Positions 12,973 to 63,298 of a stretch of DNA of 64,000 bases are shown in pieces. The position numbers and the translations under genes were made by a program. A model generated the notes under the pieces. The model worked only from the letters and a program-made list of their open reading frames with translations, was not told where the DNA came from and made no database searches. Origin of the DNA: Bacteroidales bacterium (GTDB taxonomy: Bacteria > Bacteroidota > Bacteroidia > Bacteroidales > Bacteroidaceae); the NCBI GenBank assembly GCA_018064685.1, contig JAGHUS010000163.1:2666-66665 (forward strand), given 5' to 3'. Position 1 is the stretch's first letter. Each line of letters starts with the position of its first letter.

Positions 12973-12984
12973 CGGAATTATTAT

Positions 12985-13093
12985 TAGTATAGAGTATTTT
13001 TAGTGTAGAGTTTAGAGTAGTTGAAAGTGTATTATAGTTTAGAGTTGAGAGAATTTTTAGTGTAGAGTATTCTATTGTAGAGTTTAGAGTTTT
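12985..13093. repeat. TAGAGT/GTAGAG word stutter
   Basis: ATTTTTAGTGTAGAGT exact at 12996-13011 and 13053-13068; GTAGAGTTTAGAGT exact at 13005-13018 and 13077-13090. Confidence 0.85.
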
Positions 13094-13128
13094 CTAGAAT
13101 TCTTTATACAAGCTTCGCTTAATTTTAA

Positions 13129-13281
13129 GTAGTAAAAGAGAGATAAAAGGGAGTAAAGCTTTTGACGAAGGTCAAAATGCAGTAGTAAAAGGGACAATAC
13201 CTCTGTGACAATTTATACTAATGTCACTTTTACTACCTTTTTACTACCTTTGTACTACCTTTTTACTACCTTTATACTACC
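13129..13281. repeat. CTTTTACTACC array: five direct 11-bp units plus two inverted copies
   Basis: TACTACC at 13231, 13242, 13253, 13264 and 13275 (exact 11-bp period); inverted GTAGTAAAAG at 13129-13138 and 13182-13191. Confidence 0.9.
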
Positions 13282-13313
13282 TTTAAAATCCTTTAAAGCG
13301 AAAGTTGAATTCT

Positions 13314-14102
13314 TTATTTTGTATCCAGCACAGCACGGACGTTGAAACCTGAACGGCGAGCGTCGTTATACAAATCGCAACTGCGCCAGAAGAAGTGAAG
13401 GAAGAGCGCCTCGTTGCAGTATCGTGAAAAGAGCGTACGCGACCAGTAAAAACCATTCTTGCCTTCAAGGGTGGAAGTGCTGTAATGCCGACAACCTGCA
13501 GCGGGCAAGAAGATGGAGTTACCATTCTCGCCCACAACCTTAAAGCCGCTGTATTCATCTTCTGACACCCAATCCCAGGTACACTTCTGCAACAATTCCG
13601 TAATCTGTTCGGCAGAAGGCATTCGCCAACCTTTACCCCAGTTAACGTAGGCGGCATCATCACCGGGCTCAAGTTCCTTTCTATCATCTACATTGCCGTA
13701 CTGCTTGTCAGTAACATACTTAGAGAAACCGTAGCCCTTATCGTCAATGCTGTATTTCAGATTATTCCATTCGTAACTGTCTTTCTGGCTCGTCTCGCCC
13801 CATGCAAAGTACTGTCCGAAGTCGGTGGGCGAAGAAGCCCCCACATTCGTCGTAGCCCACTTGGTGCCCGAGGGCAGTCCAAGGTCTACCCACTCATGAC
13901 CACGATGAGTGTTTCCCACAGTAAGAGAATCGGTTCCCGATTCTACCTCAACCCTCTTTGTCTTCTCTTCCTTCGGCTTGTTCTGATTAGCAGACTTCGT
14001 CCTCTCCGTCCTAGCTTTCTTACGGGGAACCTTACCATGTTTCTGTCCCAGAGCACTGAGACTGCACACGCACAATATCAAGAAAAGAATCTTTGTTTTC
14101 AT
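13314..14102 (-). CDS. Secreted DUF1566/FISUMP-like (Lcl C-terminal-like) domain protein with lysine-rich linker
   Basis: ATG 14102; signal peptide; WVDLGLPSGTKWATTNVGA..YFAWGE..GWRMPSAEQITELL..IFLPAAG..GFYWS..GFNVRAV pattern. Confidence 0.6.
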   Translation of the reverse strand: MKTKILFLILCVCSLSALGQKHGKVPRKKARTERTKSANQNKPKEEKTKRVEVESGTDSLTVGNTHRGHEWVDLGLPSGTKWATTNVGASSPTDFGQYFAWGETSQKDSYEWNNLKYSIDDKGYGFSKYVTDKQYGNVDDRKELEPGDDAAYVNWGKGWRMPSAEQITELLQKCTWDWVSEDEYSGFKVVGENGNSIFLPAAGCRHYSTSTLEGKNGFYWSRTLFSRYCNEALFLHFFWRSCDLYNDARRSGFNVRAVLDTK

Positions 14103-14544
14103 AAATATATTATCCGCTTACTAAAGTACAATCACTCCTTTCATCCTCATCCACAATACGAAAAACTGATCATAGACAGTATAGACATTTCTGCCAAATG
14201 TAATGAATTCTTTTTCCAGCAAACCCTTTATTGCCGAACTTTATCATTTAATGATAATATCAGCTTCGCTTGTTTATACTACGATTCGTTGCCATTAACC
14301 ACAGTGCCATCTACACGTCCGTCGGCAGAATAGCACTTACATTATACACTACTGCTGTTTTTTCATTTCGCTGCAAAGATAAGAAATAAATATGGTACTT
14401 CCGATATTTGGACTGACCTTTTTTGGCAAAGATATACTATTTGGCATAAACTGATAATTGAACGTACTTTTGAAGCAGAGTCGTAGAAAAATGATTCCCC
14501 TGGGCTGGAAGCACTTTCTCTTTTCTGCCACAGCATTTTTTAGA

Positions 14545-14667
14545 CATAAAATGGCTCACCAAGAAAAAGCTGTGTCAGATGGGAAAACAAAAACTACAAT
14601 CAAAGGGACTGTTTACGGGTGAGCCAATAAAACTATCGTGTAGGTGTTGTGTAGAGTACTGATTTTT
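14545..14667 (-). ncRNA. Candidate ~120-nt RNA, or the start of a long leader, driven by orphan promoter module C; unverified
   Basis: Module C -7 box at 14674-14681. 9-bp inverted repeat TGGCTCACC/GGTGAGCCA (14552-14560 / 14618-14626) closes a 57-nt loop and is followed on the minus strand by TTTTA. No credible CDS until 14102. Confidence 0.2.
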
Positions 14668-14673: not shown

Positions 14674-14758
14674 CAAAGGTAAGCAAAAAACAGTAAAAGG
14701 ATACTTGCAAAATGAACTTATTTTACAGTCAGGGTTAAATTCAATATGTTTTGCAAGA
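14674..14758 (-). promoter_or_regulatory. Conserved promoter module, copy C (orphan)
   Basis: On the plus strand: CAAAGGTA - N22 - CTTGCAAAATGAAC - N27 - ATATGTTTTGCAAGA. Same geometry as copies A and B. Confidence 0.5.
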
Positions 14759-14761: not shown

Positions 14762-14803
14762 AGGGAAAAAATGGAGTTAAAGGAGCTCAAATCCTTTAAC
14801 TCC
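14762..14803 (-). terminator. Intrinsic terminator of lipoprotein gene 14813-15400
   Basis: Perfect 12-bp stem GGAGTTAAAGGA/TCCTTTAACTCC (14773-14784 / 14792-14803), 7-nt loop, followed on the minus strand by ATTTTTTCCC. Confidence 0.75.
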
Positions 14804-14812
14804 AAGAGTACT

Positions 14813-15400
14813 TTACTTATATTTCTCTTCATCCAAAGGGAAGTCAACCGAACATACAGAAATGACTGCATTGACATGACCCTCGAAAAGCTTAACAGAG
14901 TTATAACCACCTTGGTTCCAACCAAAAGCAGTTCCAGAGAACATACCTGACTTGGTGCAGTCGCCTGCCTTCAAATAGAAACGGAAGAGCTTACTGTCCT
15001 CCTCACTTGCATTGGCAATCAACGCCTTACCAGCCTCGGTAAGCTTGTATGATACCGAAACATGGATAGGCTGCTCATTTTCATACTCGATAGCGGGAAT
15101 CTGCAGTGAGCGACCGCCCACCGTAACATCCTCATCTTTATCCTCGTCGTAATAGGTGCCGATACTATCAGAATGAAGACTTGCGACTATCGGATAAGAC
15201 TTCTTCACACCTACACTGTCCACGTTAATAGTGAAATCGGCAAACTCGAAAAAGGCGTCTGAAAGAGCAAGCTTGTAAGAGATATAGTGCTTCTGGACAG
15301 GAGCAGGAGCGGGAACAACCTCGTCATCGCCGCAAGAGCTGAAACCAACAGCCAACAATGCCAGGATAGCAAGGCTGAAAATAGAAATATACTTCTTCAT
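14813..15400 (-). CDS. Hypothetical lipoprotein
   Basis: ATG 15400; lipobox LAVGFSSC; followed by strong terminator 14762-14803. Confidence 0.7.
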   Translation of the reverse strand: MKKYISIFSLAILALLAVGFSSCGDDEVVPAPAPVQKHYISYKLALSDAFFEFADFTINVDSVGVKKSYPIVASLHSDSIGTYYDEDKDEDVTVGGRSLQIPAIEYENEQPIHVSVSYKLTEAGKALIANASEEDSKLFRFYLKAGDCTKSGMFSGTAFGWNQGGYNSVKLFEGHVNAVISVCSVDFPLDEEKYK

Positions 15401-15433: not shown

Positions 15434-15730
15434 TTATTCGCCGTAGACACGAATCTGGTGCTTAACAACAACGCCAAAGAAAATTGACTTGTTGTACTCC
15501 TCGACATGCGAAATCTTGGTGATGCCACCATTTGCAGCAGCTGCCTTGATAGACTGCTCTGGACCACCCTTACCAAAGAAACCAAGAATAGTCTTCTGCT
15601 CAGAAACACCCATCTTAGAACCAACTGCACTGTTAGATGAAATGCCAACAACATGGGTTGCAGAACAGCAGCTGCTCAGAAGCATAGCTGCAAAAACACC
15701 AGCACCGATAATAGAAAAAATCTTCTTCAT
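15434..15730 (-). CDS. Small lipoprotein, TRL-like family (tentative)
   Basis: ATG 15730; signal + LLSSCC lipobox; ..GGITKISHVEEY...VYGE tail resembles TRL-like family as I remember it. Confidence 0.45.
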   Translation of the reverse strand: MKKIFSIIGAGVFAAMLLSSCCSATHVVGISSNSAVGSKMGVSEQKTILGFFGKGGPEQSIKAAAANGGITKISHVEEYNKSIFFGVVVKHQIRVYGE

Positions 15731-15861
15731 AATTGTTTAATTTAAAAGTGATTAATATTGATAATTATAATATTGTTTTTTAGTTTATGGCAGTTGGTTC
15801 TTGATTCAGTGTGAAATTAAGAGGTTTTCGTTTCCACTAAACGACTAAACGACTAATCCCC

Positions 15862-17679
15862 TTAACGACTAACCTCTCCCAACTTCTTCCTGTACTCTCC
15901 CGCCGTCATGCCGTACATGGCTTTGAACTGCCGGCGGAATGTGGACTGGTCTTTGTAGCCGCACTGTCGCATCAGATCTTCAATGGGATCATCCAAATGA
16001 TTCTTGAGCAATTCGACGAAGAGTGAGAGGCGGTATTCGGAGAGCCACTGCCGGAACGTCTTACCCGTAAGACTGTTGATGCAGACCGATATGATAGTAC
16101 GGCTAGAACCTATCTCTTCGGCAAGAAGCTTGATGTCAAGGTCGGCATTGAGGTAAAGCTTATGCTCGTCCATGGCCGTCTTGATGCGTTCGTACAATGC
16201 CTGTGTGTTCTGCAACAAACGCTCGTTTCTCGACTCCTCCAGTTTCTGCGTCAGCTCCAACACCTCTTCCTTCGTCTCGTTCAGGTCTTGCTGCGTAGCA
16301 TCTATCACCTGTTGTGCCGTCTCGATGATCTGTTCGTTCTTGCGATTACTACGCACAAGGCGAATGATGACAACCGCTGCCGCCACTATTATGACAAGCA
16401 GAATGGACAACGAGATGATGACAAGTCGCTGATGCGATACCTCGTTCTCGGCATCTTGTCGGGCCAACTCGTGTTCCTGCACCATATTAATAGATATCTG
16501 CTCGGAGAGTGTTCGCAGCATATCCTGACGGCGTATGCTGTCGCTCACAACCAGTGCACGGCGCAGATATTCATTCCCAAGCTTGTAGTTGCCCGTACGT
16601 ACTGCATCTTCCGACAGTAGCGACAGATAGTCGACATAACCGCCCACAAGACTGTCATTCTGGTAGAACAACTCCGCTGCCTTCTTGGCTTCATCGAATT
16701 CAGCCTTTCGTCCCAAGAAAGACAGTTCGTGTAATACATTTACCTGATTCTCTAACAATTGTGACTGATCGATATGGCTCAAGAGGTCAATGTAACAAGC
16801 TACGGAATCGGTATCGGCAACCGTGTTCTGCGACATGCTTTTCTGCACCTTCTGACGATAGGCCGTGGCTATTCTGATGTACATCTGACAGCGATAGAAA
16901 TCGGCAAAGCCGTGTGTGCCTTCGCCCGATGCGTTCATAGTCTCGGGACGCGGATCGACAAACGAAGGGTCACGATCGAAACGGTTGACAAGAGCCAGAA
17001 CGTCGTGGCTCGTGGCTATCACCTTGTCATAGTCCTGCCTCTCGAAGTACAGCTCCATCTGCTTCTTATTGAGCGAGATGAGCGAGATAAGTCCACTGAA
17101 CGAACTATCCTCGCTGAGCAAAAGATGTACTTTCTGGTACGTCTCTTCGGCCTGCTTAGTACGTCCCATCATCTGCTCGGCCATACCCACACGCAGCATC
17201 ATGGCAGTCTCGTCGCCGCGCATCTGTTCATGTCCATGACAGATGGCAATGCCCCGGTTGGCATAACGCAAAGTCTCGATATATCGGTTGCGCGAAGCAG
17301 TGATGTTGGAAGCCAGATCGCATATCTCCTCCTCGAGGAACTGATCGTCGCCAAACGTGCCATCGTCCAGCAGACGGTTGCAGATGCACAATGCACTGTC
17401 GGCATTGTTGTCGCCGTTCAAAACGACTATGGCATGCAGATATTCGCAACGCTTAGGAGAGATGATCTTGGCAGCGAGCAGTGAGTCGAGCATATGATGC
17501 GCTTTCGAGGGATTGCTGCTCATATAGCTCATGCAACTGTCTACAACGTCAAAATTATCCTTGCTGATGGGATATTCCATCCCATAGCCTTCGAGGCCCT
17601 GTTCGTCCCGACTGCCACAACGGCAGAACAGTGCTATCAATGTCAACGTATAAAAAAAATAGGATAATTGTCTGAACAC
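15862..17679 (-). CDS. Membrane-anchored one-component regulator: extracytoplasmic TPR-like domain - TM - coiled coil - AraC-type HTH
   Basis: Track start 17679 is GTG; N-terminal hydrophobic segment; TM IISLSILLVIIVAAAVVIIRLV; C-terminal FRQWLSEYRL..GYKDQSTFRRQFKAMYGMTAGEYRKK. Confidence 0.8.
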   Translation of the reverse strand: MFRQLSYFFYTLTLIALFCRCGSRDEQGLEGYGMEYPISKDNFDVVDSCMSYMSSNPSKAHHMLDSLLAAKIISPKRCEYLHAIVVLNGDNNADSALCICNRLLDDGTFGDDQFLEEEICDLASNITASRNRYIETLRYANRGIAICHGHEQMRGDETAMMLRVGMAEQMMGRTKQAEETYQKVHLLLSEDSSFSGLISLISLNKKQMELYFERQDYDKVIATSHDVLALVNRFDRDPSFVDPRPETMNASGEGTHGFADFYRCQMYIRIATAYRQKVQKSMSQNTVADTDSVACYIDLLSHIDQSQLLENQVNVLHELSFLGRKAEFDEAKKAAELFYQNDSLVGGYVDYLSLLSEDAVRTGNYKLGNEYLRRALVVSDSIRRQDMLRTLSEQISINMVQEHELARQDAENEVSHQRLVIISLSILLVIIVAAAVVIIRLVRSNRKNEQIIETAQQVIDATQQDLNETKEEVLELTQKLEESRNERLLQNTQALYERIKTAMDEHKLYLNADLDIKLLAEEIGSSRTIISVCINSLTGKTFRQWLSEYRLSLFVELLKNHLDDPIEDLMRQCGYKDQSTFRRQFKAMYGMTAGEYRKKLGEVSR

Positions 17680-17707: not shown

Positions 17708-17792
17708 CAAAATTATGAAAAAGAAAGCAAAAAGGCACTTGCAAAATGAACATAAATGCAAAAAACTGCTAAAATATGAACGTTTTGCAAGG
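17708..17792 (-). promoter_or_regulatory. Conserved promoter module, copy A (upstream of TPR-TM-AraC gene 15862-17679)
   Basis: On the plus strand: CAAAATTA (-7 box, 29 nt from the start codon) - N22 - CTTGCAAAATGAAC - N27 - ATGAACGTTTTGCAAGG. Confidence 0.55.
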
Positions 17793-17810: not shown

Positions 17811-18278
17811 CTATAGCAACATACTGAGGATGGCTGGCGGAACGGGTCCATCGACAGTGTAGAGGATGCTGCTGCTGTAGGTGGAGTTGCCCTGATAGAG
17901 GTGCTTGCCGTCCCAGGTGACTAGGATGTTGCTGCTGTAAGTGGAGTTACCCTGATAGAAGTGCTTGCCGTCCCACGTCAGCATGATGTTACTGCTGTAG
18001 GTGGAGTTACCCTGGTAGACATGCTTGCCGTCCCAGGTGTAGAGGATGTTACTGCTATAGGTAGAGTTGCCCTGATAGATGCGGCGTCCATCCCAAGTAA
18101 GGATGATGTTACTGCTATACGTGGAGTTGCCCTGGTACAGATGCTTGCCGTCCCAAGTATACAGGATGTTACTGCTATAGGTACTATTACCTTTATAAAT
18201 ATGTACACCCTTTGCCATGCCGACCACCGAAATGATAAGCATGACAAAGAGTGTTAAGACACGAGTTGAAAAGTTCAT
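17811..18278 (-). CDS. Secreted protein made of six tandem 20-aa repeats (xYQGNSTYSSNILYTWDGKH)
   Basis: ATG 18278, 3 nt after the stop of the upstream esterase gene; signal peptide MNFSTRVLTLFVMLIISVVGMA; six 60-nt units. Confidence 0.75.
   Translation of the reverse strand: MNFSTRVLTLFVMLIISVVGMAKGVHIYKGNSTYSSNILYTWDGKHLYQGNSTYSSNIILTWDGRRIYQGNSTYSSNILYTWDGKHVYQGNSTYSSNIMLTWDGKHFYQGNSTYSSNILVTWDGKHLYQGNSTYSSSILYTVDGPVPPAILSMLL
17841..18200 (-). repeat. Six 60-bp in-frame tandem repeats inside CDS 17811-18278
   Basis: Protein repeats IYKGNSTYSSNILYTWDGKH / LYQGNSTYSSNIILTWDGRR / ... / LYQGNSTYSSSILYTVDGPV. Confidence 0.9.
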
Positions 18279-19320: not shown

Positions 19321-19410
19321 ATCAAGCTATCGAGGCATCAAGCTAACAAGCATCGAGCCATCGAATTATCGGATAATCGAGATTTCGAGCTACCGAGCCA
19401 TCGAGCCATC
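19321..19410. repeat. ATCGAGCC/ATCAAGCT word stutter ending 5 nt from a stop codon
   Basis: atcaagctatcgaggcatcaagctaacaagcatcgagccatcgaatt..cgagctaccgagccatcgagccatc. Confidence 0.8.
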
Positions 19411-21983: not shown

Positions 21984-22034
21984 AGACAAAATCTAGGAGT
22001 TAAGGAAATTGAATCGATATAGCTTATCATGGTA

Positions 22035-22064
22035 TAAAAAAAGAAGGTTGTCATCACGACAACC
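22035..22064 (-). terminator. Intrinsic terminator oriented on the minus strand, with no annotated gene upstream
   Basis: GGTTGTC-GTGAT-GACAACC hairpin (22046-22064) followed on the minus strand by TTCTTTTTTTATA; on the plus strand it is preceded by an A-run rather than followed by a T-run. Confidence 0.55.
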
Positions 22065-22104
22065 CAACTTTCGTTAACCTTAAATCTAATACCATGAAAA
22101 ACAC
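22035..22104 (-). ncRNA. Candidate ~70-nt small RNA (promoter box to terminator), unverified
   Basis: Exact TACTTTTG -7 box on the minus strand at 22109-22116, about 45 nt upstream of minus-strand terminator 22035-22064; only a 13-codon ORF inside. Confidence 0.25.
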
Positions 22105-22416
22105 GATGCAAAAGTACTGCTTTTTTGATAATTGGCAAGCGAAAGTTAATAAAATAAACTTCAAATTGCCTTTTAATTGATTTATATCAAGAGAGACAGT
22201 CGGTAAAAACCAAAATCAAGGCTTTTTACGGGTGCGTTGCTCTTTAGCGGATTTTCTCAGCAGTCTGGTTTCCCACGCTATCAGCCTCGAATTTATTCGC
22301 AAATTCCTCTTATGTGGTTTTCATTATTACAGGTCGAAATCATTTCGGCTTGTCGCCCTTGCGTTCAATTCTCAGTGATGCCAAAACAGAAAATCATTGC
22401 CTAAATGAAAGCCATT

Positions 22417-22533
22417 GCTGCGACTTCAGATGAATAGCGTAGCGACAATTACAGAAAAACGCTGCGACAATTAGATAAAACCGTAGCGATAATTATTATA
22501 AAACCGCTGCGACAATTAGATAAAACCGTAGCG
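22417..22533. repeat. ~22-23-bp alternating tandem units (GCTGCGACAATTAGATAAAACC / GTAGCGATAATTATTATAAAACC)
   Basis: 22461-22482 and 22506-22527 are identical 22-mers; flanking units are diverged. Confidence 0.9.
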
Positions 22534-22548
22534 TGTTTTCATTGCACG

Positions 22549-22724: not shown

Positions 22725-22759
22725 ACACAAAAAGACTAGTACACCGCAGATACAGCGAC

Positions 22760-22787
22760 CCCCGAATGTCGTACTTGACATCCGGGG
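22760..22787. terminator. Hairpin downstream of OMP gene 22836-23681 (possible terminator; no clear U-tract on the minus strand)
   Basis: CCCCGAATGTC-GTACTT-GACATCCGGGG, 11-bp stem with one mismatch. Confidence 0.4.
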
Positions 22788-22835
22788 TTCGCGTTATATT
22801 TATAGTGCTTCCAATGGGTGAAAGCTGCAGATCGA

Positions 22836-35637: not shown

Positions 35638-35643
35638 AGATTG

Positions 35644-48966: not shown

Positions 48967-48970
48967 AAAA

Positions 48971-54028: not shown

Positions 54029-54072
54029 AGTGGCTTCCGGTTTCAAGGTTATCTGGATATTAACCGCAGAAC

Positions 54073-54104
54073 CGATTAAACGATTAAACGATTAAACGAA
54101 TAAA
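54073..54104. repeat. CGATTAAA x3 + CGAATAAA (8-bp period), 16 nt before the TlpA-2 start
   Basis: cgattaaacgattaaacgattaaacgaataaa. Confidence 0.85.
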
Positions 54105-54119
54105 AAAAACCGCAAAATA

Positions 54120-55481
54120 ATGAAAAAACTATTCCTTTCGCTACTGGGCGCCATCGCTCTTTCAGCTAACGCACAGAAGCCTGTCAACATCAACTTTACG
54201 GCTCATGACACTCGTATCAACGAGGTGGAGATTCAGTTTGCAGAAACCGACACCATCATCAACATGACGGCCGTGGGCGATACTGCCGCTGCCTCAAAGA
54301 CCACACAGGGCAGCGTAAGCCTTAATGTGAAGGAGCCCACCTATGGCGTCATCACCTACCGGTGGAAGAAGTCGACCGTATATCTTGAACCTGGAAAGGA
54401 CTTCAGCATGGAATGGGATCTCACCCCCGCTGCGCTCACAGTCAACGTCACTTCCAAGAAGTCGCAGATCAATCCCTACCTGTCGTGTGGCGAACTGAAG
54501 GGCCCTGTCATGGGCGACTTCGGCAAGGATCCCGAAGAGATTCTCGACATCCTCGAGGAGTATCAGACGAACTGCTACAAGATTGTCGACTCTAAGAAGC
54601 TGGACAAAACCTTCGTAGAGAAAGAGAAGCAGCGCATCCGCTACTGGATATACGGTTTCCTGGCTCAATACGCACAGCAGAAGGCTTGTGGCGACGACAT
54701 CTACGAGGTGCTGCAGGAACTCTCGTCACGCGAAGATGCATGGCTCGTGCAGATGCCCGAATACACTAACTTCCAGTACAGCGCCATCACGACTCTGGCA
54801 CTGCGCGATATCGACATCGAAAACACACCCGAGTTCCAGACCAAGGCTGTGACAACCGTGTGCGAATATGCTGCCACAAAGATCAACAACAAAGAACTCA
54901 AGGAGTATATCATCGGCACCAACGCCGTAGCACATGTAGCCAACAACGGCAACGAGGGGGCTGAGCGCTTGAAAGAGATATTCGATGCCAACATCACTGA
55001 CAAAGAGATAAAGCATGCCTTCGAGGTGGCTTGGGCCACTGGAGCAGTACTGCGCGAAGGTCGTCCTTCGCCCGAATTTAACTTCCCCGACATCAACGGC
55101 AAGAACGTCTCTCTCGCCGACCTTCGCGGCAAGTACGTCTACATCGACTGCTGGGCCACATGGTGCGTACCCTGCCGTGGCGAGCTGCCTCATCTGCAAA
55201 AACTTGAGGAGACATTCAAGGGCATGAACATCGCCTTCGTAAGCATCTCATGCGACCGCGACAAGGCCAAATGGGAAAAGATGGTGAAGGACCAGAACAT
55301 GGGCGGCATTCAGCTTTGGGGCAACGAGACGAACGAGTTCATGGAGAAGTATCGCGTGCAGAGTATTCCCCGCTTCATCTTCATCGGTCCCGACGGTCGC
55401 ATCATCAACCCCGATATGACACGCCCCTCCGACCCCAAGACCATCGAGGCACTGGGTATGGTGGCTATGCCTGTAGAATAG
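54120..55481 (+). CDS. TlpA-like thiol:disulfide oxidoreductase (second copy)
   Basis: ATG 54120; signal peptide; YVYIDCWATWCVPCR CxxC motif. Confidence 0.8.
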   Translation: MKKLFLSLLGAIALSANAQKPVNINFTAHDTRINEVEIQFAETDTIINMTAVGDTAAASKTTQGSVSLNVKEPTYGVITYRWKKSTVYLEPGKDFSMEWDLTPAALTVNVTSKKSQINPYLSCGELKGPVMGDFGKDPEEILDILEEYQTNCYKIVDSKKLDKTFVEKEKQRIRYWIYGFLAQYAQQKACGDDIYEVLQELSSREDAWLVQMPEYTNFQYSAITTLALRDIDIENTPEFQTKAVTTVCEYAATKINNKELKEYIIGTNAVAHVANNGNEGAERLKEIFDANITDKEIKHAFEVAWATGAVLREGRPSPEFNFPDINGKNVSLADLRGKYVYIDCWATWCVPCRGELPHLQKLEETFKGMNIAFVSISCDRDKAKWEKMVKDQNMGGIQLWGNETNEFMEKYRVQSIPRFIFIGPDGRIINPDMTRPSDPKTIEALGMVAMPVE

Positions 55482-55509
55482 TAATAAAGAATAAAAACAA
55501 ACAAGAAAA

Positions 55510-56892
55510 ATGAAGAAGATCATTTTATCAATACTTGCACTGATGCTTATCGGCATCACTGCCCAGGCTGCAGAGAGCAAGATTATACGTGCTCATGACA
55601 GCAACGACTACTGGCACGATTATTACTACAACGCGCAGAACCAACTTTTCTGGGAAATATATGGCACTACACGTCGTGAGTATACATACAACGAAGCTGG
55701 CCAGTTGACCTCCATGCAACAGAAAGCTTGGGTGTCTGCAACAGGCGTATATACACTCAACCAGCACGAGACGTATGAATATGATGCTAACGGCAATATG
55801 TCAAAGAAGATTATTGTGAAGAATCCAGGCAGCAGTTTCGAGGTTACATGGACATACACCTACTTTGACTACGTGAATGGCGTAGCAACCTACTATGATG
55901 AGTACAAGAACGGCAATCTTTACTATATGTATAAGCAGCTTCCTGAGTTCGATGCACAGAACCGACTGGTGAAATGTGTAGTAATGTATGCAGACCCAGA
56001 CGACTATACCAATCCCACCTACGGCAATGTAGACTACGAAAGAAAGGATCATGAGTACACGAAGACATGGGCTGAAGACGGAACACTGGCTGCCGAGAAC
56101 GATGGTAAGGTGACATACGAATACATCTACACCGAGCTTGACGCATCTTACGCTCCTACAGGACTGAAGGCTGAGAGCGACAACGAGGTCGTTACGCTCA
56201 CATGGAACGCCGTACCAGGTATAGACGAATACAATGTCATTTATGATCAGACTGTAACCTTGGTTCATGGTACATCATTCCGCACTGCGGTTGAAACGGG
56301 CGACCGTCAGTTTACCGTACAAGCTATCATCGGGGACTTTCCCCGCAATGCAGCAACGCCTGTCACTGCCACTATCGTTGACCCAGGCAAACTGCCCATC
56401 ACCAACCTTGCAGTAGGCGAAATAACCATGACCACCGAAGAAACCGAAAGTCCGAAGGCCCCAACCCGCGACTTCTTCAACATCCAACTCAAATGGACAT
56501 TGCCTGAAGGACACTCGGAAGTAGAGAAATACTATGTATATTACAACTCGACGCGCTACGGCAAGGACATACAGGTAGCCGTAAACGACAAGGATGCCAC
56601 ATCGTTCACACTCAAGATTGACCCAGACGAGGTTGCAGAATGGGACAGCGAAGGCAATCCCGTGAAGGGCGTTGAGACACCTATCTACATGACTGTAGTT
56701 TACGTTACCGGTGAGTCAGAGAAGTCAAACATCGTTACCATCAACCCTTACGACAAGTTCTACACAGGTGTTAAGAACGTCAAGGGCGAAGAGTCAGGAT
56801 CAAAGAGTTGCTACAACCTCGCTGGCCAGCTCGTCAACAATGCTCAGAAGGGCCTCGTAATCAAGAACGGCAAGAAGGTTGTAGTGAAGTAA
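55510..56892 (+). CDS. Secreted YD-repeat-like + Fn3-like protein with T9SS C-terminal sorting domain
   Basis: ATG 55510; signal peptide; YTYNEAGQLTSM, YEYDANGNMSKK; Fn3-like LTWNAVPGIDEYNV; C-terminus CYNLAGQLVNNAQKGLVIKNGKKVVVK. Confidence 0.75.
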   Translation: MKKIILSILALMLIGITAQAAESKIIRAHDSNDYWHDYYYNAQNQLFWEIYGTTRREYTYNEAGQLTSMQQKAWVSATGVYTLNQHETYEYDANGNMSKKIIVKNPGSSFEVTWTYTYFDYVNGVATYYDEYKNGNLYYMYKQLPEFDAQNRLVKCVVMYADPDDYTNPTYGNVDYERKDHEYTKTWAEDGTLAAENDGKVTYEYIYTELDASYAPTGLKAESDNEVVTLTWNAVPGIDEYNVIYDQTVTLVHGTSFRTAVETGDRQFTVQAIIGDFPRNAATPVTATIVDPGKLPITNLAVGEITMTTEETESPKAPTRDFFNIQLKWTLPEGHSEVEKYYVYYNSTRYGKDIQVAVNDKDATSFTLKIDPDEVAEWDSEGNPVKGVETPIYMTVVYVTGESEKSNIVTINPYDKFYTGVKNVKGEESGSKSCYNLAGQLVNNAQKGLVIKNGKKVVVK

Positions 56893-56958
56893 CGCAAGGC
56901 ACAAGCTTCTAATCAAGATTTGAGACAGAAAGGGGGCTAACCCCTGATCCATAAGTGT

Positions 56959-56999
56959 AAGGGCTGCAACGGAAATATGCCGTGCAGCCCTTTCTTTTA
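56959..56999 (+). terminator. Intrinsic terminator after 55510-56892
   Basis: 13-bp stem (one bulge) AAGGGCTGCA(A)CGG / CCGTGCAGCCCTT followed by TCTTTTAT. Confidence 0.65.
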
Positions 57000-57048
57000 T
57001 ACTATAGCCATCGAAGGGAGCAATCACCCCCCCTTAATGGTGATATAA

Positions 57049-59169
57049 TCAGCGTGCTACTCTTGTTCCAATAATGTTGTACAGCTGACCGTTCTTCTCG
57101 ATGACGATATTGCCGCGAGGGTCGAGGCGCTTGGTGGTGCGATGGATGTCAGAGCCTATTGGCTGAATGCCAGTGGTAGAGAGGATGTATTCCAATCCAC
57201 GCAAAGCGTTGATCTTGCCATATCCTGCACGCTCAGGCTTTGCCTCGCAGAAGGAATCGTAGTCGGATGTCTGACGGATGATGTTGCGAACATCGGCCGT
57301 GGTGAGTGTGGGATCTGCCTGCAGCCAGAGGGCTATGATGCCCGATACGGCAGGAGTAGCCATCGAGGTGCCAGACATGCATCCCCACTTACAATCAGTG
57401 CCGTTGTACGTGCTGATGCTCACAACATTGCCATCCATCATCGATTGGTGGTAGGAAGAGATGAGCATACGACCAGGAGCTACGACATCTGGACGAGCAG
57501 TACCATAAAAGGAAGTGCTGAAGCTGGAGTATTCCGACAACTCGCCAGGTTCTTCATCACTCTCTATGCCATCGTCTCCAATTTCATCGTCGATAGTGGT
57601 GAAGTAATATCGGTTGGTGTATGAACCCACCGAGATGACATTGTCGGTGCAAGCCATAGGATTCAAGCTGCCAAAGTTGTTAGGTACCGCAATGTCGGGA
57701 TCGTCTGGAACGTACGTGAATGCATTGTTCTCGACAGCGCCATCAATGTGCATTCCCTCGCTCTTTGTATACAGAGCCGCCACTATCATCATAGGTTCAG
57801 CCAAGTTTCTGCCATTAAATTCTGTTTCGTGAAGAAGGCGATTGGTGGAAGTAAGCTTGAAGGTTGGGAACAACTCTACCAAAAAGTCATTACCATAGTT
57901 CGACACACCTTTCAGCGCAATAGGTTCCTTCAGGTCCTTCACCGTCTCAGGGGTAAGCTTGTCGGTGGATGCCAACATTCTATTCTGATCGTCAACAACA
58001 ATATATTTCACAGCAAACTCCCTGTCATCATTTCCGTAGAAGAATACATTCATAACAGAACTAAACAGGCCTTCCGTTTCACGATCAAACTGAGGGTCAA
58101 AGTACATCAACTTCTGCATTGTCCAATCATCATTCACAATGGGCTGTTCGCAATCTATCTGAACCGAGAGACTCTGACCACCCTCATTTCCGGCAGCCAC
58201 ACACACTACTTTTCCCCTCATGTCGTAGTTCTTCATTAACTCTCTCAAACCCTCGCTGAAAAAGTCCGTACCGTCCAACTGTGGCGAATTGACGCCAATA
58301 CTTAAGTTCACAACAACAGGCTGATGCAGTTCGTCTGCCTTATCGAAAGCACGAGTCAGATTCAACAGAACATCAGAATCATCATACGTTCCAGTGTAAC
58401 TCAACATAAGGTCATAGGCAAGAATGTCAGCCTCAGGAGCCATGCCATAATACTGCTTGTTGGGGTCGCCCACAGCCAGCAAATCGGTGGAACCTGCAGC
58501 AATACCAGCCACATGGGCGCCATGACCCATGCGCACCTCATCATCACGTTCAAGTGATGCCTTTATGCCCTCCTCTACCTTATCATCTTTAGATACCACA
58601 AAATGCGATGGAGCCGATTCACTAACATTATAAACCAATTCCTTGATTCTGGACGTACCGTCGGCATTGCGAAAGGCAGGATGTGCGAAGTCTATCTCCG
58701 CATCGATGACACTGACCAACACACCTTTTCCACGATACTTCTCCGGAACATCTGCGCTGGCACTCTGCACTGTATTCATCGCATGTACATTATCCACCAT
58801 CGTGCTCTTGCGTGCATAGTCGTTCTTCATCCTTACGCTTCCACCTGCATGGATGGTCTTTATGCCCTCAATCTGTGCAAGAGCTTCTAGTCGGCTGATA
58901 GGCACGTTGACAAAAACTACCGTACCACGCCTCTTCACCACCTCAATGTCGAGTGCCTCAAGGGCAGAGTCAGTCACATCGGCATCCTCGCTGAGCAGGA
59001 TGGTAGCAAGAGTACGCTGTTCGGCTGCCACACGGTGCTGCTTCCTGTCAGCATTGGCATGCTTGGCAAAAAGAATCTGCGCAGAGTTAGTAAGCTTGGA
59101 TGTCTGAGCATTGACGCTGAAGACAATCAACAACGAAGCAAAAAATGCTATGATTTTTTTTGATTTCAT
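57049..59169 (-). CDS. S8 (subtilisin) family serine peptidase, probable T9SS cargo
   Basis: Track start is GTG, ATG at 59169 (MKSKKIIAFFASLLIVFSVNAQ). VSVIDAEID, HGAHVAGIAAG, GTSMATPAVSG triad motifs; C-terminus LDPRGNIVIEKNGQLYNIIGTRVAR. Confidence 0.85.
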   Translation of the reverse strand: MKSKKIIAFFASLLIVFSVNAQTSKLTNSAQILFAKHANADRKQHRVAAEQRTLATILLSEDADVTDSALEALDIEVVKRRGTVVFVNVPISRLEALAQIEGIKTIHAGGSVRMKNDYARKSTMVDNVHAMNTVQSASADVPEKYRGKGVLVSVIDAEIDFAHPAFRNADGTSRIKELVYNVSESAPSHFVVSKDDKVEEGIKASLERDDEVRMGHGAHVAGIAAGSTDLLAVGDPNKQYYGMAPEADILAYDLMLSYTGTYDDSDVLLNLTRAFDKADELHQPVVVNLSIGVNSPQLDGTDFFSEGLRELMKNYDMRGKVVCVAAGNEGGQSLSVQIDCEQPIVNDDWTMQKLMYFDPQFDRETEGLFSSVMNVFFYGNDDREFAVKYIVVDDQNRMLASTDKLTPETVKDLKEPIALKGVSNYGNDFLVELFPTFKLTSTNRLLHETEFNGRNLAEPMMIVAALYTKSEGMHIDGAVENNAFTYVPDDPDIAVPNNFGSLNPMACTDNVISVGSYTNRYYFTTIDDEIGDDGIESDEEPGELSEYSSFSTSFYGTARPDVVAPGRMLISSYHQSMMDGNVVSISTYNGTDCKWGCMSGTSMATPAVSGIIALWLQADPTLTTADVRNIIRQTSDYDSFCEAKPERAGYGKINALRGLEYILSTTGIQPIGSDIHRTTKRLDPRGNIVIEKNGQLYNIIGTRVAR

Positions 59170-60425: not shown

Positions 60426-60510
60426 CAAAAATACAAAAAAAAACAAAAAACATAGTTTGCAAAACGAACAACTCTGCAAAACACCCTTAAAATATGTACG
60501 TTTTGCAAGG
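60426..60510 (-). promoter_or_regulatory. Conserved promoter module, copy B (upstream of secreted HAD hydrolase gene)
   Basis: On the plus strand: CAAAAATA (-7 box, 39 nt from ATG 60387) - N22 - TTTGCAAAACGAAC - N27 - ATGTACGTTTTGCAAGG. Confidence 0.55.
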
Positions 60511-60653
60511 TTTTGGCAGAGACAAGGGCATAAAGCAACCATGATAAAGAGTATTTCTTCATCAAACTTGTGCTACATTACAATATAATTGGGAGGTGAT
60601 GCAGATGACATCAATCTACATTCCGAGAAGTAAAAAGCGCTGATAGAGGCTGG

Positions 60654-61226
60654 CTATTTTTTCTCACCACTTATCACCTGCTCGATGACCTTGGGGAAAT
60701 GAGCCATCTCCAGCACATGCACCTTGTCGGCAATATCATCGGGCGTATCGTCGGGCGTGAGGGCGGTAGAGAACTGAGCGATGCGTTCGCCAGCATCCAG
60801 TTCGGTATTGACAAAGTGTATGGTTATACCCGTCTCACTCTCGCCAGCAGCCTTTACCGCTTCATGCACATGATGCCCCCACATGCCCTTGCCGCCATAC
60901 TTGGGCAGAAGCGCAGGATGAATGTTGATGATGCGGTTGGGATAAAGTGTGATGAGGTATTCGGGCACCTTAGGCAGGAATCCGGCTAGGATGATATAGT
61001 CACATCCCTTAACAGTGTCGAGCACAAGCTGACGATCCTCGTTCAACTGCTGACGTGTGATGACCGTCGTGGGGATACCCAGATTCTCGGCACGCACTAT
61101 GGCATAAGCATCGCTTTTGTTGCTTACCACGATAGACACTTCCACCTCCTTGCTACCCTGGAAGTAACGAATGATATTCTCACAGTTAGTGCCGCCACCC
61201 GACACAAAGATTGCTAACTTTGTCAT
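60654..61226 (-). CDS. purN: Phosphoribosylglycinamide formyltransferase
   Basis: ATG 61226; IFVSGGGTNCENI, NIHPALLPKYGGKGMWGHHVHEAV motifs. Confidence 0.9.
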   Translation of the reverse strand: MTKLAIFVSGGGTNCENIIRYFQGSKEVEVSIVVSNKSDAYAIVRAENLGIPTTVITRQQLNEDRQLVLDTVKGCDYIILAGFLPKVPEYLITLYPNRIINIHPALLPKYGGKGMWGHHVHEAVKAAGESETGITIHFVNTELDAGERIAQFSTALTPDDTPDDIADKVHVLEMAHFPKVIEQVISGEKK

Positions 61227-61571
61227 GTTCCTTATTTATCTAACGAGCGACAAAGGTATTACATATCTTCAAGATAAGCAAGCAATTCGGCTACAAATTT
61301 GCATTTTCAACAACAATATGTCGCACATTCCCATTTCTCACCTTACTTTTGTCATTGTTTTCATGCAAAATGCAAACTATTAGCAGAACAACCAAGAGGG
61401 AAATGATTCGTTCTTGTAGCAATAACGAGTTACTTCTGCACTGAGTTTTTCAGAAACACGTTACACAGAAAGATGCTACACAAACTACAAATATCACACG
61501 AGAAGAAGCTAAATACGGAATATTTTCAATAAAATCAAAGATTATCTTGCCGATAATTGAAGTTTTATTCG

Positions 61572-61579
61572 TACATTTG
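61572..61579 (+). promoter_or_regulatory. -7 box TACATTTG upstream of rhodanese-MBL gene
   Basis: Exact TAnnTTTG, 86 nt before ATG 61665. Confidence 0.35.
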
Positions 61580-61664
61580 CACAATTCATTAAAATGCAGA
61601 ATGATTGTAATTTAGAATATTTCGGTCAGACACCAATCAACAACAAAATAGTTAACAGGATATT

Positions 61665-62753
61665 ATGAAAATCAAACTGATGGGACTTTTTACAATGCTT
61701 TGCAGCATGTTGGCATGCAAAGCGCAGGCAGAGGGCTACAAGAGCCTCGGTGTAGATGAATTTGCCAAAACCATTGAGGATAGCAAGGTAGTGCGACTGG
61801 ACGTACGAACGGCTGAGGAGTATGCCGAAGGACACATAGCAATGGCCATGAACATCGACGTAAAGCAAGATGACTTTGAGAAAAAAGCCAAGCTTGCGCT
61901 CGACAAGACGAAGACCATTGCTGTGTATTGCCGAAGCGGAAACAGGAGCAAGAAGGCATGCCAGATACTGACGTCAAACGGATACCAAGTTATCGAACTA
62001 TCGTCTGGCATCATGGGATGGACAAACGCAGGCAAGGAGGTGACGAAGGAAGAGGTGGATGTCTTCACCACTGCCAATGGCGCCACCGTATACATGCATT
62101 GCATCAAGCATGGCAGCCTCAGCATCATGGTCTCTACCCCATCATCCGATGGGCAAAGCAGAACTGTCGACAAATGGATTTACGTCGACCCAGTGACAGA
62201 TAAAGTACAGCCTATAACAGACTATAGTTCAATGCCTAAGGCTGACTACATACTAGTGACACACGAACATGCCGACCACCTTGATGCGAAAGCAATAGAG
62301 CAACTGACAAAGGAGGGTACGATGCTCATCGTCAACCCTCGAAGCAGCGAGTTGCTGGGTGGCAAGGGCGACGTGATGAAGAACGGCGAGAGCAAAACCA
62401 TCGCTACATGGACCGTAGAGGCCGTGCCTGCATACAACACCTCGACCGACAAGCAGCAGTTCCACCCCAAGGGACGTGACAATGGCTACATCCTCTCCAT
62501 CGAAGGACTTCGCATCTACATCGCTGGCGACACCGAACCGACGCCCGAGATGCAGTACATCAAGGACATCGACATTGCTCTGATGCCATGCAACCTGCCC
62601 TTTACCATGACTCCCGAGCAACTGAAGGAGGCTGCCAGCATAGTCCGTCCCAAAGTGCTCTTCCCATACCACTACGGCAAGACTGATATGCAGCAAGTTG
62701 TCAATCTGATGGACGGAAGCGGCATAGACGTAAGAATAAGGCAATATCAGTAA
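61665..62753 (+). CDS. Exported rhodanese domain fused to MBL-fold metallo-hydrolase
   Basis: ATG 61665; signal/lipobox SMLACKA; rhodanese VRLDVRTAEEYAEGHI..VYCRSGNRSKKA (active-site Cys loop); MBL ILVTHEHADHLD. Confidence 0.8.
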   Translation: MKIKLMGLFTMLCSMLACKAQAEGYKSLGVDEFAKTIEDSKVVRLDVRTAEEYAEGHIAMAMNIDVKQDDFEKKAKLALDKTKTIAVYCRSGNRSKKACQILTSNGYQVIELSSGIMGWTNAGKEVTKEEVDVFTTANGATVYMHCIKHGSLSIMVSTPSSDGQSRTVDKWIYVDPVTDKVQPITDYSSMPKADYILVTHEHADHLDAKAIEQLTKEGTMLIVNPRSSELLGGKGDVMKNGESKTIATWTVEAVPAYNTSTDKQQFHPKGRDNGYILSIEGLRIYIAGDTEPTPEMQYIKDIDIALMPCNLPFTMTPEQLKEAASIVRPKVLFPYHYGKTDMQQVVNLMDGSGIDVRIRQYQ

Positions 62754-63041
62754 AGCAGAGAACAAAGAGCTTTGCATACAACGATGGTAAGCCGTATGAT
62801 GTAACGCCGCATACGTCCAGCTTTCATCAATTTGCTGCATGGACAATTTTCTTTCCGTGCGTGGCGGAAAAAGTAATATCGCAGCAGCATTAAAATTTCC
62901 GCCACGCGCGGAAAAAAAATGCCTTAGCGTCTTTGCATCATTTTACGGTACTGAAAATAAGTCTGAATCAGGGGGCTGATCACATGATTCAGTGTCTACA
63001 TTTATTAAGAAAAAAAGTTTTAAAACGCCAAAAGGGTTCAA

Positions 63042-63272
63042 GGGTTCCACTTTAAAGATGTAAACATCACAAAATCATTATGATACACCAGTGGAACCCT
63101 CGGTGGAACCCTGCTTAAGGGTTCCACGGGGTTCCACTTGCGAATGCAACTCGCTTTGTTTTGAGAAGGGGAAATGGTGGAACCCTGTGGAACCCTTGAA
63201 CGGGGTTCCACCAAGGGTTCCACGCACATAAGAAACTGTTATACATCATGTTACAAGCAAAAAGTGGAACCA
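63042..63272. repeat. Dyad-symmetric cluster of ten GGGTTCCAC / GTGGAACCC 9-mers (two 47-bp palindromic modules plus two flanking copies)
   Basis: Plus-sense copies at 63042, 63119, 63129, 63203 and 63215; minus-sense copies at 63091, 63103, 63177, 63187 and 63264 (the last is GTGGAACCA). Confidence 0.9.
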
Positions 63273-63298
63273 TTGATGGTTTTCATGCAAAAAAAAAT

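Follow-up and report, generated by a model that had tools for sequence, protein, structure and literature searches.

Stuttered word arrays in the intergenic spacers of a Prevotellaceae genome: probable slippage-prone micro- and minisatellites, in part spread by small mobile modules

Why should the spacers between bacterial genes consist to a large extent of short words repeated head to tail, each copy slightly altered from the last, and why should the same words return in one spacer after another? This question is raised by a 64,000-nucleotide (nt) stretch of contig JAGHUS010000163.1 (positions 2,666 to 66,665) from the GenBank assembly GCA_018064685.1 of a Bacteroidales bacterium; the whole of this stretch is referred to here as the window. 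It is sequence of a metagenome-assembled genome (MAG) from a gut or rumen member of the Prevotellaceae: the nearest genomes in GTDB are Prevotellaceae MAGs (GTDB label “Bacteroidaceae”), and the amino acid identity of the M3 peptidase to its relatives is at most 82%. The window has a G+C content of ∼49% and encodes SusC-like and SusD-like proteins, peptidases of the S41, M3, and S8 families, and thioredoxin-fold lipoproteins, along with a Bacteroidales-type small signal recognition particle (SRP) RNA (40013-40119), a tRNA-Thr, and the FopS small RNA (sRNA) at 22033-22104(-). Repeat arrays were called with Tandem Repeats Finder (TRF), which returned 79 rows over the window, and the main spacers were also inspected by eye. 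Genes were called with an iterated codon-usage model, whose start positions are heuristic and approximate; it replaced a greedy longest-open-reading-frame (ORF) caller that had put several genes on the wrong strand. The answer favored here, with a little more confidence than doubt, is that the arrays are slippage-prone micro- and minisatellites that were partly seeded and spread by small mobile modules.

The arrays are far more numerous than chance would have them. TRF arrays cover 1486 of the 8260 intergenic bases (18.0%) vs 997 of the 55740 coding bases (1.8%). Of the 34 spacers that reach 40 nt, 15 contain arrays, which after merging number 31 and total 1435 nt, as against 3.0 ± 1.7 arrays (maximum, 7) and 69 ± 42 nt in 200 dinucleotide-preserving shuffles of these same spacers, an approximately ten-fold excess in number. 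A previous reading of this DNA, made from its sequence only (the sequence-only reading), had proposed such shuffling as a test, and the observed array density is far above the shuffled level. All arrays named in that reading were recovered by TRF and direct inspection, in place or a few bases away. Its count of at least 20 array-bearing spacers is too high for the spacers, which number ∼16 within positions 12973-63298, but the number of arrays does exceed 20.

The same pipeline, applied to single 50-kb stretches of other genomes, assigned to arrays 3.0% of the intergenic bases in Bacteroides finegoldii, 3.3% in Parabacteroides distasonis, and 4.9% in Segatella hominis vs 15-18% in the window; in Escherichia coli K-12, 50 kb contained no arrays in the annotated intergenic DNA and 1.0% with the genes called by this pipeline. 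The relatives consisted of 77 Prevotellaceae loci of at least 8 kb, all taken around the M3 peptidase gene and therefore representing one synteny block. Their arrays make up a median of ∼9% and a maximum of 38% of the spacer bases (∼1% in coding DNA). Judging from this distribution and from the value for S. hominis, the array habit is strong in many, but not all, lineages of Prevotellaceae, with the window in the upper range. Among the 134 robust arrays (those with at least 3 copies and a score of at least 40), the unit length is 7 nt in 62, 8 nt in 22, and 9 nt in 9, and this dominance of 7-nt units places them in the class of “long simple sequence repeats” with units of 5-11 nt. The arrays also survive in independent assemblies: they are carried by L081, an ENA contig from a different sample (10.7 kb, 96% identical over positions 30140-40877 of the window), which served as the only same-species comparator, and by the Logan assembly L191, obtained with a second assembler, which is 100% identical over positions 49425-59006 (9.6 kb). 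Since both of them reproduce the arrays, an assembly artifact is ruled out. The protein P0006 led to L081, and exact look-ups of P0005, of the GT2 protein of the window, and of the alpha-galactosidase gave no entry.

Closely related strains show how such arrays change. Between the window and L081, coding DNA differs by 331 substitutions in 9289 aligned positions with zero gaps, vs 76 gap columns in the spacers. L081 is shorter by 9 nt (one GGAGTTAAA unit) in one array and by 8 nt (one TAGTCGTT unit) in another, is longer by 5 nt beside the AATTAGAAT words, and has most of the 39800-39950 array block, made of 23-nt units, replaced by other sequence. In a single convergent spacer of Segatella copri strains that are ∼97% identical, AACATTC is present in 2.4 to 9.6 copies and CTTTTTAC in 2.6 to 6.5 copies; some strains of this species have an ordinary bidirectional terminator where others have a hairpin between arms of (GGTAAAAA)n and (TTTTTACC)n. 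In orthologous operon-internal spacers, the words differ from species to species, and the spacer between the GT2 glycosyltransferase and DUF6452 genes contains 155 nt of arrays in the window vs ∼40 nt without any array in a species with 93% identity in GT2. A process of slippage or duplication had been suggested in the sequence-only reading, along with a comparison of orthologous spacers between strains, and the whole-unit differences, both between the window and L081 and among the S. copri strains, bear this out. Because close strains differ by whole array units, slippage must be at work, and its gains and losses, together with the fast turnover, are demonstrated directly. Two other features were seen in these comparisons. 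The L081 replacement of the 39800-39950 array carries a hairpin-like sequence, GTCATTCCGACGTAAGGGATGAC, similar to CATTCGTTCGGAATGAC in the window spacer 9444-9576 (positions 9500-9545), and the two may represent another small dispersed element. The GT2 glycosyltransferases of some relatives (L082 10001-11440; P0001-P0004) have 421-479 amino acids (aa) and two Glycos_transf_2 matches vs 319 aa in the window, which suggests internal duplication or gene fusion.

Words that are shared between different spacers, also reported in the sequence-only reading, are evident from four matches of 19-30 nt within the window: 30556-30585 with 35656-35685 (97% identical over 30 nt), 35600-35626 with 44429-44455 (93% over 27 nt), 38104-38131 with 52749-52776 (93% over 28 nt), and 15837-15855 with 38005-38023 (an exact 19-nt match in reverse complement). 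In several spacers, the shared stretches extend past the periodic word. The first of them is a 30-mer, AATTCTTCTTTCTTCT(T/C)TCTTAATTCTTAA, found at both 30556 and 35656, and five arrays of AATT words are each preceded by a similar GC-rich core of the form CGCRCMAGCY. A separate dyad, CTTGCAAAATGAAC ... CGTTTTGCAAG, with arms of ∼11-17 nt that are 10-20 nt apart, is dispersed over the window (14703-14757, 17737-17791, and, right half only, 60488-60511); it resembles a shared operator, or else one more small dispersed element, and is separate from the tandem arrays.

The vocabulary is not confined to the window. Exact copies of the 30-mer module are found in 18 metagenome contigs, in at least 12 distinct gene contexts, and these contigs have no blastn similarity to the window; by our own estimate, the exact 29-base pattern, which has these 18 matches, would not be expected even once by chance in the collection. 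The borders of the 30-mer are sharp, and it is flanked by other stutters, including (AATTATG)n, (GTAAACN)n, (TTTCAGG)n, and (AGTGAAG)n. In most contexts, a co-oriented ORF begins 21-151 nt downstream, and in three of them, a Bacteroidetes-type -7 box (TACCTTTGCA) follows the 30-mer by ∼10-15 nt. The GGAGTTAAA arrays of the window, of one S. copri strain, and of 4 among the 6 viral contigs with this word have a nonperiodic junction, GGAGTTAA(A)GAC, in common; TAGTCGTT recurs in the related locus L004, though not at the same position, and five viral contigs have it as well. IMG/VR contigs contain an exact (AATTATG)3.5 in 63 stretches; a single contig has as many as six, and both orientations occur. 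Wherever its context was examined, (AATTATG)n is intergenic in these contigs, and their spacers drift from word to word in the same way. For two of the viral contigs, megablast gave no match among GenBank phages, and searches of the word-bearing contigs revealed nothing taxon-specific with NCBIfam and only tRNAs with Rfam.

Two arrangements in these loci are of interest in their own right. The viral contig L118 has two direct copies of GGAATTTTACTACCTTTTTACTACCTTTTT, the word found at 13228 in the window, on its minus strand (4073-4093 and 4279-4299), and the segment between them ends like the 3' end of a tRNA; this arrangement resembles that of attachment sites. Several rumen Prevotella loci (L012 and L028; also L014, L021, L040, and L075) carry a composite, GGTACAAYAAAAAAGTG(AAAAGTG)nAAAAKTTTGC, which occurs twice, in inverted orientation and 4.6 kb apart, at 3182-3215 and 7859-7890 of L012 and at 4406-4439 and 9027-9058 of L028. 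This composite could be promoter-associated, or it could bound an invertible or mobile segment.

A means of spreading is provided by small insertions in S. copri. One locus (L063) contains an insert of ∼170 bp at a site that is empty in ten other strains. With arms of (GGAGTTAAA)n and (TTTAACTCC)n, it terminates in CTSAASTTTCGCA, inverted at the two ends, and this sequence likewise delimits a second insert of ∼250 bp that is not related to the first. The insert is flanked by the duplicated target TAAATAA, in which the stop codon of the gene upstream is contained. The inserts in this species duplicate ∼7 bp (TAAATAA or (C/G)TAAAGA) at AT-rich sites. Inserts of ∼250-330 bp with CTSAASTTTCGCA ends form a family, similar to transposable elements of the miniature inverted-repeat kind (MITEs), that is present or absent at several sites among strains (L057 14838-15166; L065 9625-9873; L072 ∼14838-15095 and 15470-15700; and sites in L053, L062, and L068); a 31-nt segment at one insert end (TTTCGCAAGTTTTGCCCCACACGCCCTG...) has three tandem copies in L057 vs one in L072. 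MITE-like elements are known to be numerous in Bacteroidota (PMC11602168). Owing to the array-armed insertion and the sharing of nonperiodic modules, at least some of the vocabulary is, as far as sequence can tell, spread by MITE-like elements. The CTSAASTTTCGCA end itself is absent from the window, where its single match has 2 mismatches, lies inside a gene, and is fewer than chance would give. Inverted array pairs are seen in the window at 13129-13284, 44401-44537, and 63091-63223, while most of its arrays have no inverted partner.

With respect to genes, the arrays do touch translation signals as described in the sequence-only reading: they overlap the stop codons at 15862 and 44412, abut those at 38141 and 44537, and run into the start codons at 37985 and 52769. 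That they are seeded at gene ends is borne out only weakly. Assuming uniform placement of each array within its own spacer, 57 arrays lie within 2 nt of a stop codon vs 30.8 expected (∼1.9-fold; z = 7.2), but only 35 lie within 2 nt of a called start vs 26 expected, which is little enrichment, and the share of arrays is similar in all types of spacers (co-directional, 9.9%; convergent, 13.2%; divergent, 8.0%). The excess at stop codons could come from the frequent presence of TAA or TAG in the units, from the harmlessness of duplications that span a stop, or from the TAA-rich targets into which the S. copri element inserts. The strand skew is pronounced at 39781-39955 (6 G in 175 nt), 48971-49070 (6 C in 100 nt), and 30307-30353 (46 pyrimidines in 47 nt). 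Units with only G or only C make up 65% of the total vs 37% of random spacer words of the same length, and much of the skew follows from the tiling of a short AT-rich word. On the sense strand near gene ends, A exceeds T in 60 of 76 and 59 of 77 arrays, and in 366 of 481 spacers in general. For 105 (AATTATG)n arrays, a same-sense start was found nearby in 28 and an opposite-sense start in 23 (both in 5 of these), with no start within 30 nt in 59. A sense-strand-specific role was accordingly rejected, as this word has no preferred orientation and arrays are just as A-rich as spacers at large.

The predicted structures are equally unremarkable in most cases. Most array-bearing spacers fold no better than their shuffles (z from -1.9 to +1.5); the significant folds are those of 13129-13278(-) (z = -5.1), 44415-44536(-) (z = -3.0), and 63085-63230 (z = -12.3; -97.6 kcal/mol), in all of which a word array faces its own inverse. 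The idea that the arrays are unusually unstructured RNAs was dropped, the z-scores being near zero rather than positive. For the most part, they are not intrinsic terminators either, candidates for which occur at chance level. Among array-related features, the only canonical-looking terminator is the one at 14772-14804(-), where GGAGTTAAAGGA and its complement are followed by T6; in the spacers of protein-coding genes within 12973-52972 (40 kb), the only others are at 30375-30412 and, as a weak 5-pair hairpin, at 30287-30302, apart from the terminator of the FopS gene itself. None of these sites is a tandem array, and their counts do not exceed those in shuffled spacers. A scan for the sigma-70 consensus, made with promoters in mind, is uninformative for Bacteroidota and was discarded. 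In Rfam 15, no family matches any array, and only the SRP RNA, FopS, and tRNA-Thr reach the gathering score in the window; the array matches are spurious sub-threshold ones, of microRNA models to a dyad-symmetric 22-nt array. As the units are contiguous, without unique spacers, and mostly of 7-9 nt, the arrays do not qualify as CRISPRs, and most units are not the stable hairpin palindromes of repetitive extragenic palindrome (REP) sequences or bacterial interspersed mosaic elements (BIMEs). In sum, genes, canonical terminators, REP hairpins, and CRISPRs fail to explain the arrays, just as the sequence-only reading had maintained.

According to the explanation favored here, the spacers would be largely made of fast-evolving imperfect micro- and minisatellites with units mostly of 7-9 nt and, in some, of 11-24 nt. 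Slippage or unequal exchange adds or removes whole units, as observed between strains, and subsequent substitutions blur the copies into the “stutter.” Array-bearing modules would be copied between spacers, genomes, and phages, which is seen in a relative and presumed for the window, and some of them may travel as small MITE-like elements with tandem-word arms, giving rise to the recurring vocabulary. Arrays would persist only outside reading frames, where selection allows; they would reach or cross stop codons because many units contain TAA or TAG, and they would take on the A-rich sense-strand bias of their own spacer. Most arrays would then be tolerated filler that incidentally alters the spacing around promoters, starts, and stops, and some may be arms of 3' hairpins or form leaders immediately before start codons. 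The combination of slippage and mobile modules accounts for the excess of arrays, their imperfection, the unit-sized polymorphism, the indifference to the type of spacer, and the shared vocabulary.

Several observations fit this explanation less well. In the window itself, no array could be assigned inverted ends or a target duplication, and the 30-mer has no visible target duplication despite its sharp borders. The AATT core stays constant in the drifting arrays of phages while the other 3-4 bases vary, which fits selection on the word better than drift, and so does the retention, across species with S41 proteins that are 83-94% identical, of an 8-nt CGRAAWAY array immediately before the S41 start. 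In addition, the relatives were all sampled around one synteny block, and the positions of gene starts depend on the heuristic calls.

The strongest of the alternatives, though still an unlikely one in our estimate, is that the arrays are selected cis-elements, with slippage only as their maker; a selected class of untranslated-region or spacer elements was also among the options of the sequence-only reading. They would be periodic sites for a nucleic acid-binding protein conserved in the Prevotellaceae and in their phages (on RNA, S1 or a protein with a cold-shock or RRM domain; on DNA, a nucleoid protein) or structure-free A-rich leaders suited to the way in which Bacteroidota initiate translation independently of Shine-Dalgarno sequences. 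The persistence of CGRAAWAY, the constant AATT core, and the conserved 30-mer near a -7 box make it conceivable that some words are recognized by a protein or work as expression cassettes. The recurrence of words in unrelated contexts, species, and phage-like contigs, often abutting starts or stops, points the same way, as do the exactness and sharp borders of the 30-mer with its co-oriented downstream ORFs, the avoidance of G/C mixing in the units, the predicted lack of structure in direct arrays, and a comparable proposal for TAACTGA repeats (PMC4679880). However, arrays are as common in convergent and divergent spacers as elsewhere, (AATTATG)n ignores the orientation of genes, the sense strand is no richer in A than it is in other spacers, and the folding z-scores are near zero and not positive. 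Moreover, copy number is free to vary between strains, and the GT2-to-DUF6452 spacer can do without arrays in a close relative.

Purely local, neutral slippage, in which shared words would reflect convergence from AT-rich composition and a polymerase preference for 7-nt slips, appears improbable. It would explain the unit indels between strains, the presence of arrays in all types of spacers and their agreement with the composition bias of the spacer, the fact that the arrays of 22-23-nt units are private to this genome among the loci compared, and the dominance of heptamers, which has been ascribed elsewhere to polymerase slippage (Mrazek et al. 2007, as summarized in PMC4679880). It is contradicted, however, by the same words and the exact 30-mer in nonorthologous spacers and viral contigs: the matches span nonperiodic stretches (the 30-mer and the GC-rich cores), the 29-base pattern is matched 18 times where chance should give none, and the GGAGTTAA(A)GAC junction is common to several genomes. 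The discrete, array-armed insertion of S. copri, with its inverted ends and target duplication, argues against it as well.

It is far less likely still that the arrays are transposon footprints, built up by repeated insertion and excision with target duplications of 7-9 bp. The S. copri inserts do duplicate ∼7 bp at AT-rich sites, including a stop codon, 7 nt is the commonest period, and arrays are enriched against stop codons, but arrays of 5-12 copies would require many cycles at one site, the words are diverse and have no single target consensus, and units of 11-24 nt are left unexplained. Bacterial cut-and-paste excision, in addition, rarely leaves both copies of the target. Finally, an assembly or binning artifact, brought to mind by the MAG origin of the window and by a short-read contig of the same sample that breaks inside one array, has a negligible probability in view of the agreement with the other-sample contig and the second assembler and of the similar arrays in complete isolate genomes of S. 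copri.

The individual arrays are varied in their makeup. The first of those within 12973-63298, a TATTTTTAGTGTAGAG/TTAGAGT stutter with 16-nt and 7-nt periods at 12979-13092 (TRF, sequence), adjoins the start end of the gene 9577-12972(-). It is followed by AGTAGTAAAAG words at 13129-13199, which an inverted-repeat search identified as the inverted partner of the array at 13228-13284, with a small hairpin, TTTTGACGAAGGTCAAAA, in between. The latter array consists of 5.2 copies of TTTTACTACCT with 93% matches, and the same 21-mer is found in 2 viral contigs. The short-read Logan contig L192, from the same sequencing run, ends within this array (∼13213 of the window), and in metagenome assemblies of these organisms, similar arrays are a probable cause of fragmentation. 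The terminator-like hairpin GGAGTTAAAGGA/TCCTTTAACTCC followed by TTTTTT at 14772-14806(-), found in the terminator scan, lies just 3' of the gene 14813-15400(-) and shares one word with the array at 30248. At 15836-15872, 4.6 copies of ACTAAACG overlap the stop codon of an AraC-type gene (15862-15864); this word corresponds, in reverse complement, to the TAGTCGTT word at 38005, and a related array is found at another position in L004. An 8-nt stutter of the ATCGAGCC type with ∼11 copies and 67% matches (19321-19410) ends 5 nt away from the stop codon at 19415. The tandem repeat of 60 nt (20 codons) at 17857-18183 (5.3 copies, ∼80% identity) is not a spacer array: it lies within ORF 17811-18278(-), which codes for a repetitive protein of 155 aa.

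Two arrays of 22-nt units lie side by side, GCGACAATTAGATAAAACCGCT with 3.9 copies at 22438-22533 (TRF, sequence) and ACGGCAGCTGTTAAACGCGTGT with 7.7 copies and internal dyad symmetry at 22546-22714 (TRF, inverted-repeat search); no copy of the latter was found elsewhere among the 182 loci compared. The FopS-family sRNA gene, ∼340 nt from these two arrays, has its own -7 box (TACTTTTG) and terminator, and the 731-nt “spacer” 22105-22835 may contain an uncalled small gene. Further on, the 30248-30284 array has 4.2 copies of GGAGTTAAA, ends in ...GGAGTTAAAGAC, a junction shared with a MITE-like insert of S. copri, and is the one with one unit fewer in L081. It is followed by a polypyrimidine stutter of TCTTCTT and CTTGCTTTTCTCTTCT at 30301-30352 and by AATTCTT/TAATTCT words at 30499-30535, located after the GC-rich core ACGCCAGCT (both from TRF and sequence). 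The 30-nt module at 30556-30585, AATTCTTCTTTCTTCTTTCTTAATTCTTAA, follows the core CGCGCAAGCC; its paralogue at 35656-35685, the C variant detected in the within-window comparison, follows the core TCGCACAGTT. Near the latter, a CGGTTTTA/TGGTTTA stutter of 4.4 copies (35600-35634) lies 11 nt from the start at 35589, and ATTATGGATTAAGAATTAGAAT, the inverted partner of the AATTCTTAA words, forms a weak hairpin at 35711-35734, just 3' of the ApbE stop codon, where L081 has its 5 additional bases.

The array at 37987-38078 has 3.8 copies of a 24-nt unit, TTTAGTCGTTTGGGGAACTAGTCG, which in turn consists of TAGTCGTT words; 2 nt separate the array from the start at 37985(-), and one 8-nt word fewer is present in L081. 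After the core CGCGCCAGCC, 4.7 copies of AATTATG (38106-38138) abut the stop at 38141. The G-poor array at 39783-39965, with 5.4 copies of the 23-nt unit TTCACATTACTACGCACACCCAA and then T-rich 9-mers, is flanked by divergent promoters and located upstream of the SRP RNA gene; both its strands are predicted to be unstructured, it is the block largely replaced in L081, and it has no copy in the other loci compared. Arrays with units of 22-23 nt are also found in B. finegoldii, P. distasonis, and S. hominis (L188 23455-23513; L189 15268-15339 and 28372-28445; L190 45510-45652), alongside those at 22438-22714 and 39783-39920 of the window. Their sequences are unrelated, and the BrickBuilt element of Porphyromonas gingivalis has units of equal length, and the preference for a 22-23-nt period may be an order-wide property.

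In the remaining part of the window, AGGTATATTCAC (3.6 copies), AAAAGAAG (3.6 copies), and GAGCA (3 copies) share the 41985-42122 stretch (TRF, sequence). The 5.4 copies of CGGTTTTA at 44401-44458 overlap the stop 44412-44414, and their inverted partner, words of the TAAAACCT type at 44497-44537, abuts the stop at 44537(-). C-poor AGTTCAGAGTGGAG (3.2 copies), followed by AGATTTG (5.4 copies), occupies 48970-49056, a stretch located 4 nt past the stop codon at 48966 and flanked by the SusC-like gene and the SusD-like one. The 3.7 copies of AATTATG/AATTAAG at 52751-52776, after the core GCACAGCC, are identical in L191, and the last unit provides the start ATG at 52769; as the reading frame begins at that unit, changes in the number of upstream copies would leave it intact. 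Four copies of CGATTAAA (54073-54104), also identical in L191, lie 16 nt upstream of the start at 54120. Finally, the stretch 63032-63276 contains 8 or more copies of GTGGAACCC(T), some in each orientation, that form a very stable long hairpin, and this word is rare in other loci.

How do these arrays compare with known systems? Prokaryotic long simple sequence repeats have units of 5-11 nt, heptamers being the usual favorite, for which polymerase slippage has been proposed (Mrazek, Guo and Shah 2007, as summarized in PMC4679880). With periods of 7-11 nt, 2-8 copies, intergenic positions, and a prevalence of heptamers, the window arrays belong to this class; they share with it the head-to-tail short units, an overwhelmingly intergenic location, a sporadic phylogenetic distribution, and the proposed origin by slippage. 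Unlike its typical members, they have far from perfect copies in which one word drifts into another, many words are present per genome, and some words and modules are common to several species and phage-like contigs. The short tandemly repeated repetitive (STRR) heptamers of cyanobacteria are of the same kind. A cyanobacterial origin of the window, initially brought to mind by the heptamers, was rejected on account of the Bacteroidales SRP RNA and FopS matches in Rfam and of the SusC-like genes. The arrays are not STRRs proper, the host being a member of the Bacteroidales by its SRP RNA and FopS (Rfam) and by its nearest relatives in the Prevotellaceae, and none of the TRF unit words equals what we take to be the STRR heptamers, no search for STRR sequences having been made.

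Direct repeats of TAACTGA upstream of start codons have been described in marine Beggiatoaceae, Cyanobacteria, and five Bacteroidetes (PMC4679880). Like the window arrays, these are intergenic heptamers, often a few nucleotides from a start, whose word occurs in distant lineages and whose copy number varies among relatives. However, TAACTGA is a single word with a fixed orientation to the downstream gene and a suggested role in translational regulation (PMC4679880), unlike the dozens of words found here in all types of spacers, with (AATTATG)n unoriented. The BrickBuilt and 464/PgRS elements of P. gingivalis are MITE-like, with imperfect tandem repeats of 23 nt or 41 nt (PMC4596501). BrickBuilt resembles the arrays in its Bacteroidales host, strictly intergenic location, imperfect units, and variable copy number; the window has arrays with units of 22, 22, 23, and 24 nt, and the array-armed S. 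copri element has inverted ends and a target duplication. In contrast, most units here are of 7-9 nt rather than 23 nt, BrickBuilt has one internal array between a nonrepetitive leader and tail where the S. copri element has arrays as two inverted arms, and the long-unit arrays of the window have neither leader, tail, nor inverted ends that could be found, nor copies in the loci compared.

The BIMEs and REP sequences of enterobacteria and the BOX elements of pneumococci are spacer elements combined from a few short motifs, with a variable number of one module. The arrays are similar to these in their small combinatorial vocabulary and variable module number; however, REP units are imperfect palindromes of ∼35 nt, whereas most of the arrays are direct repeats without predicted structure. 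A further likeness is to the phase-variable simple sequence repeats of contingency loci (PMC11868660), which are also slippage-prone, close to promoters or starts, and variable in copy number among strains. Contingency repeats, though, are usually perfect, and their unit changes switch a gene on or off, in contrast to the imperfect and ubiquitous arrays seen here. Hence, abundant intergenic heptamer repeats and MITE-borne minisatellites are both already known; no description of such arrays as a spacer trait throughout the Prevotellaceae, or of a vocabulary common to species and phage-like contigs, was found in the literature searched.

Prevotella and Segatella are among the most abundant bacteria of the gut and rumen, and, to our knowledge, their noncoding DNA is almost unstudied. 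They belong to the Bacteroidota, which have unusual promoters and do not rely on Shine-Dalgarno pairing. An intriguing, if speculative, possibility is that the Prevotellaceae and their phages share a lexicon (AATTATG, AATTCTT..., GGAGTTAAA, TAGTCGTT, GTAAACN, and the 30-mer AATTCTTCTTTCTTCTYTCTTAATTCTTAA) from which much of the intergenic DNA is built, either as ultra-short mobile modules that insert into and extend each other or as periodic binding arrays for a conserved DNA- or RNA-binding factor in the gene expression of a lineage without Shine-Dalgarno-led initiation. If a tenth or more of the spacer DNA is hypervariable, it would be a major overlooked source of strain-level variation, and arrays of such abundance would be a cause of contig breaks in metagenomes as well as ready markers for strain typing. 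Words common to host and phage-like contigs could tie phages to their hosts, as has been proposed for MITEs (PMC11602168). If it emerges that some factor binds the words, or that they function as mobile cassettes (terminators or leaders), they would offer insight into the organization of expression signals in Bacteroidota.

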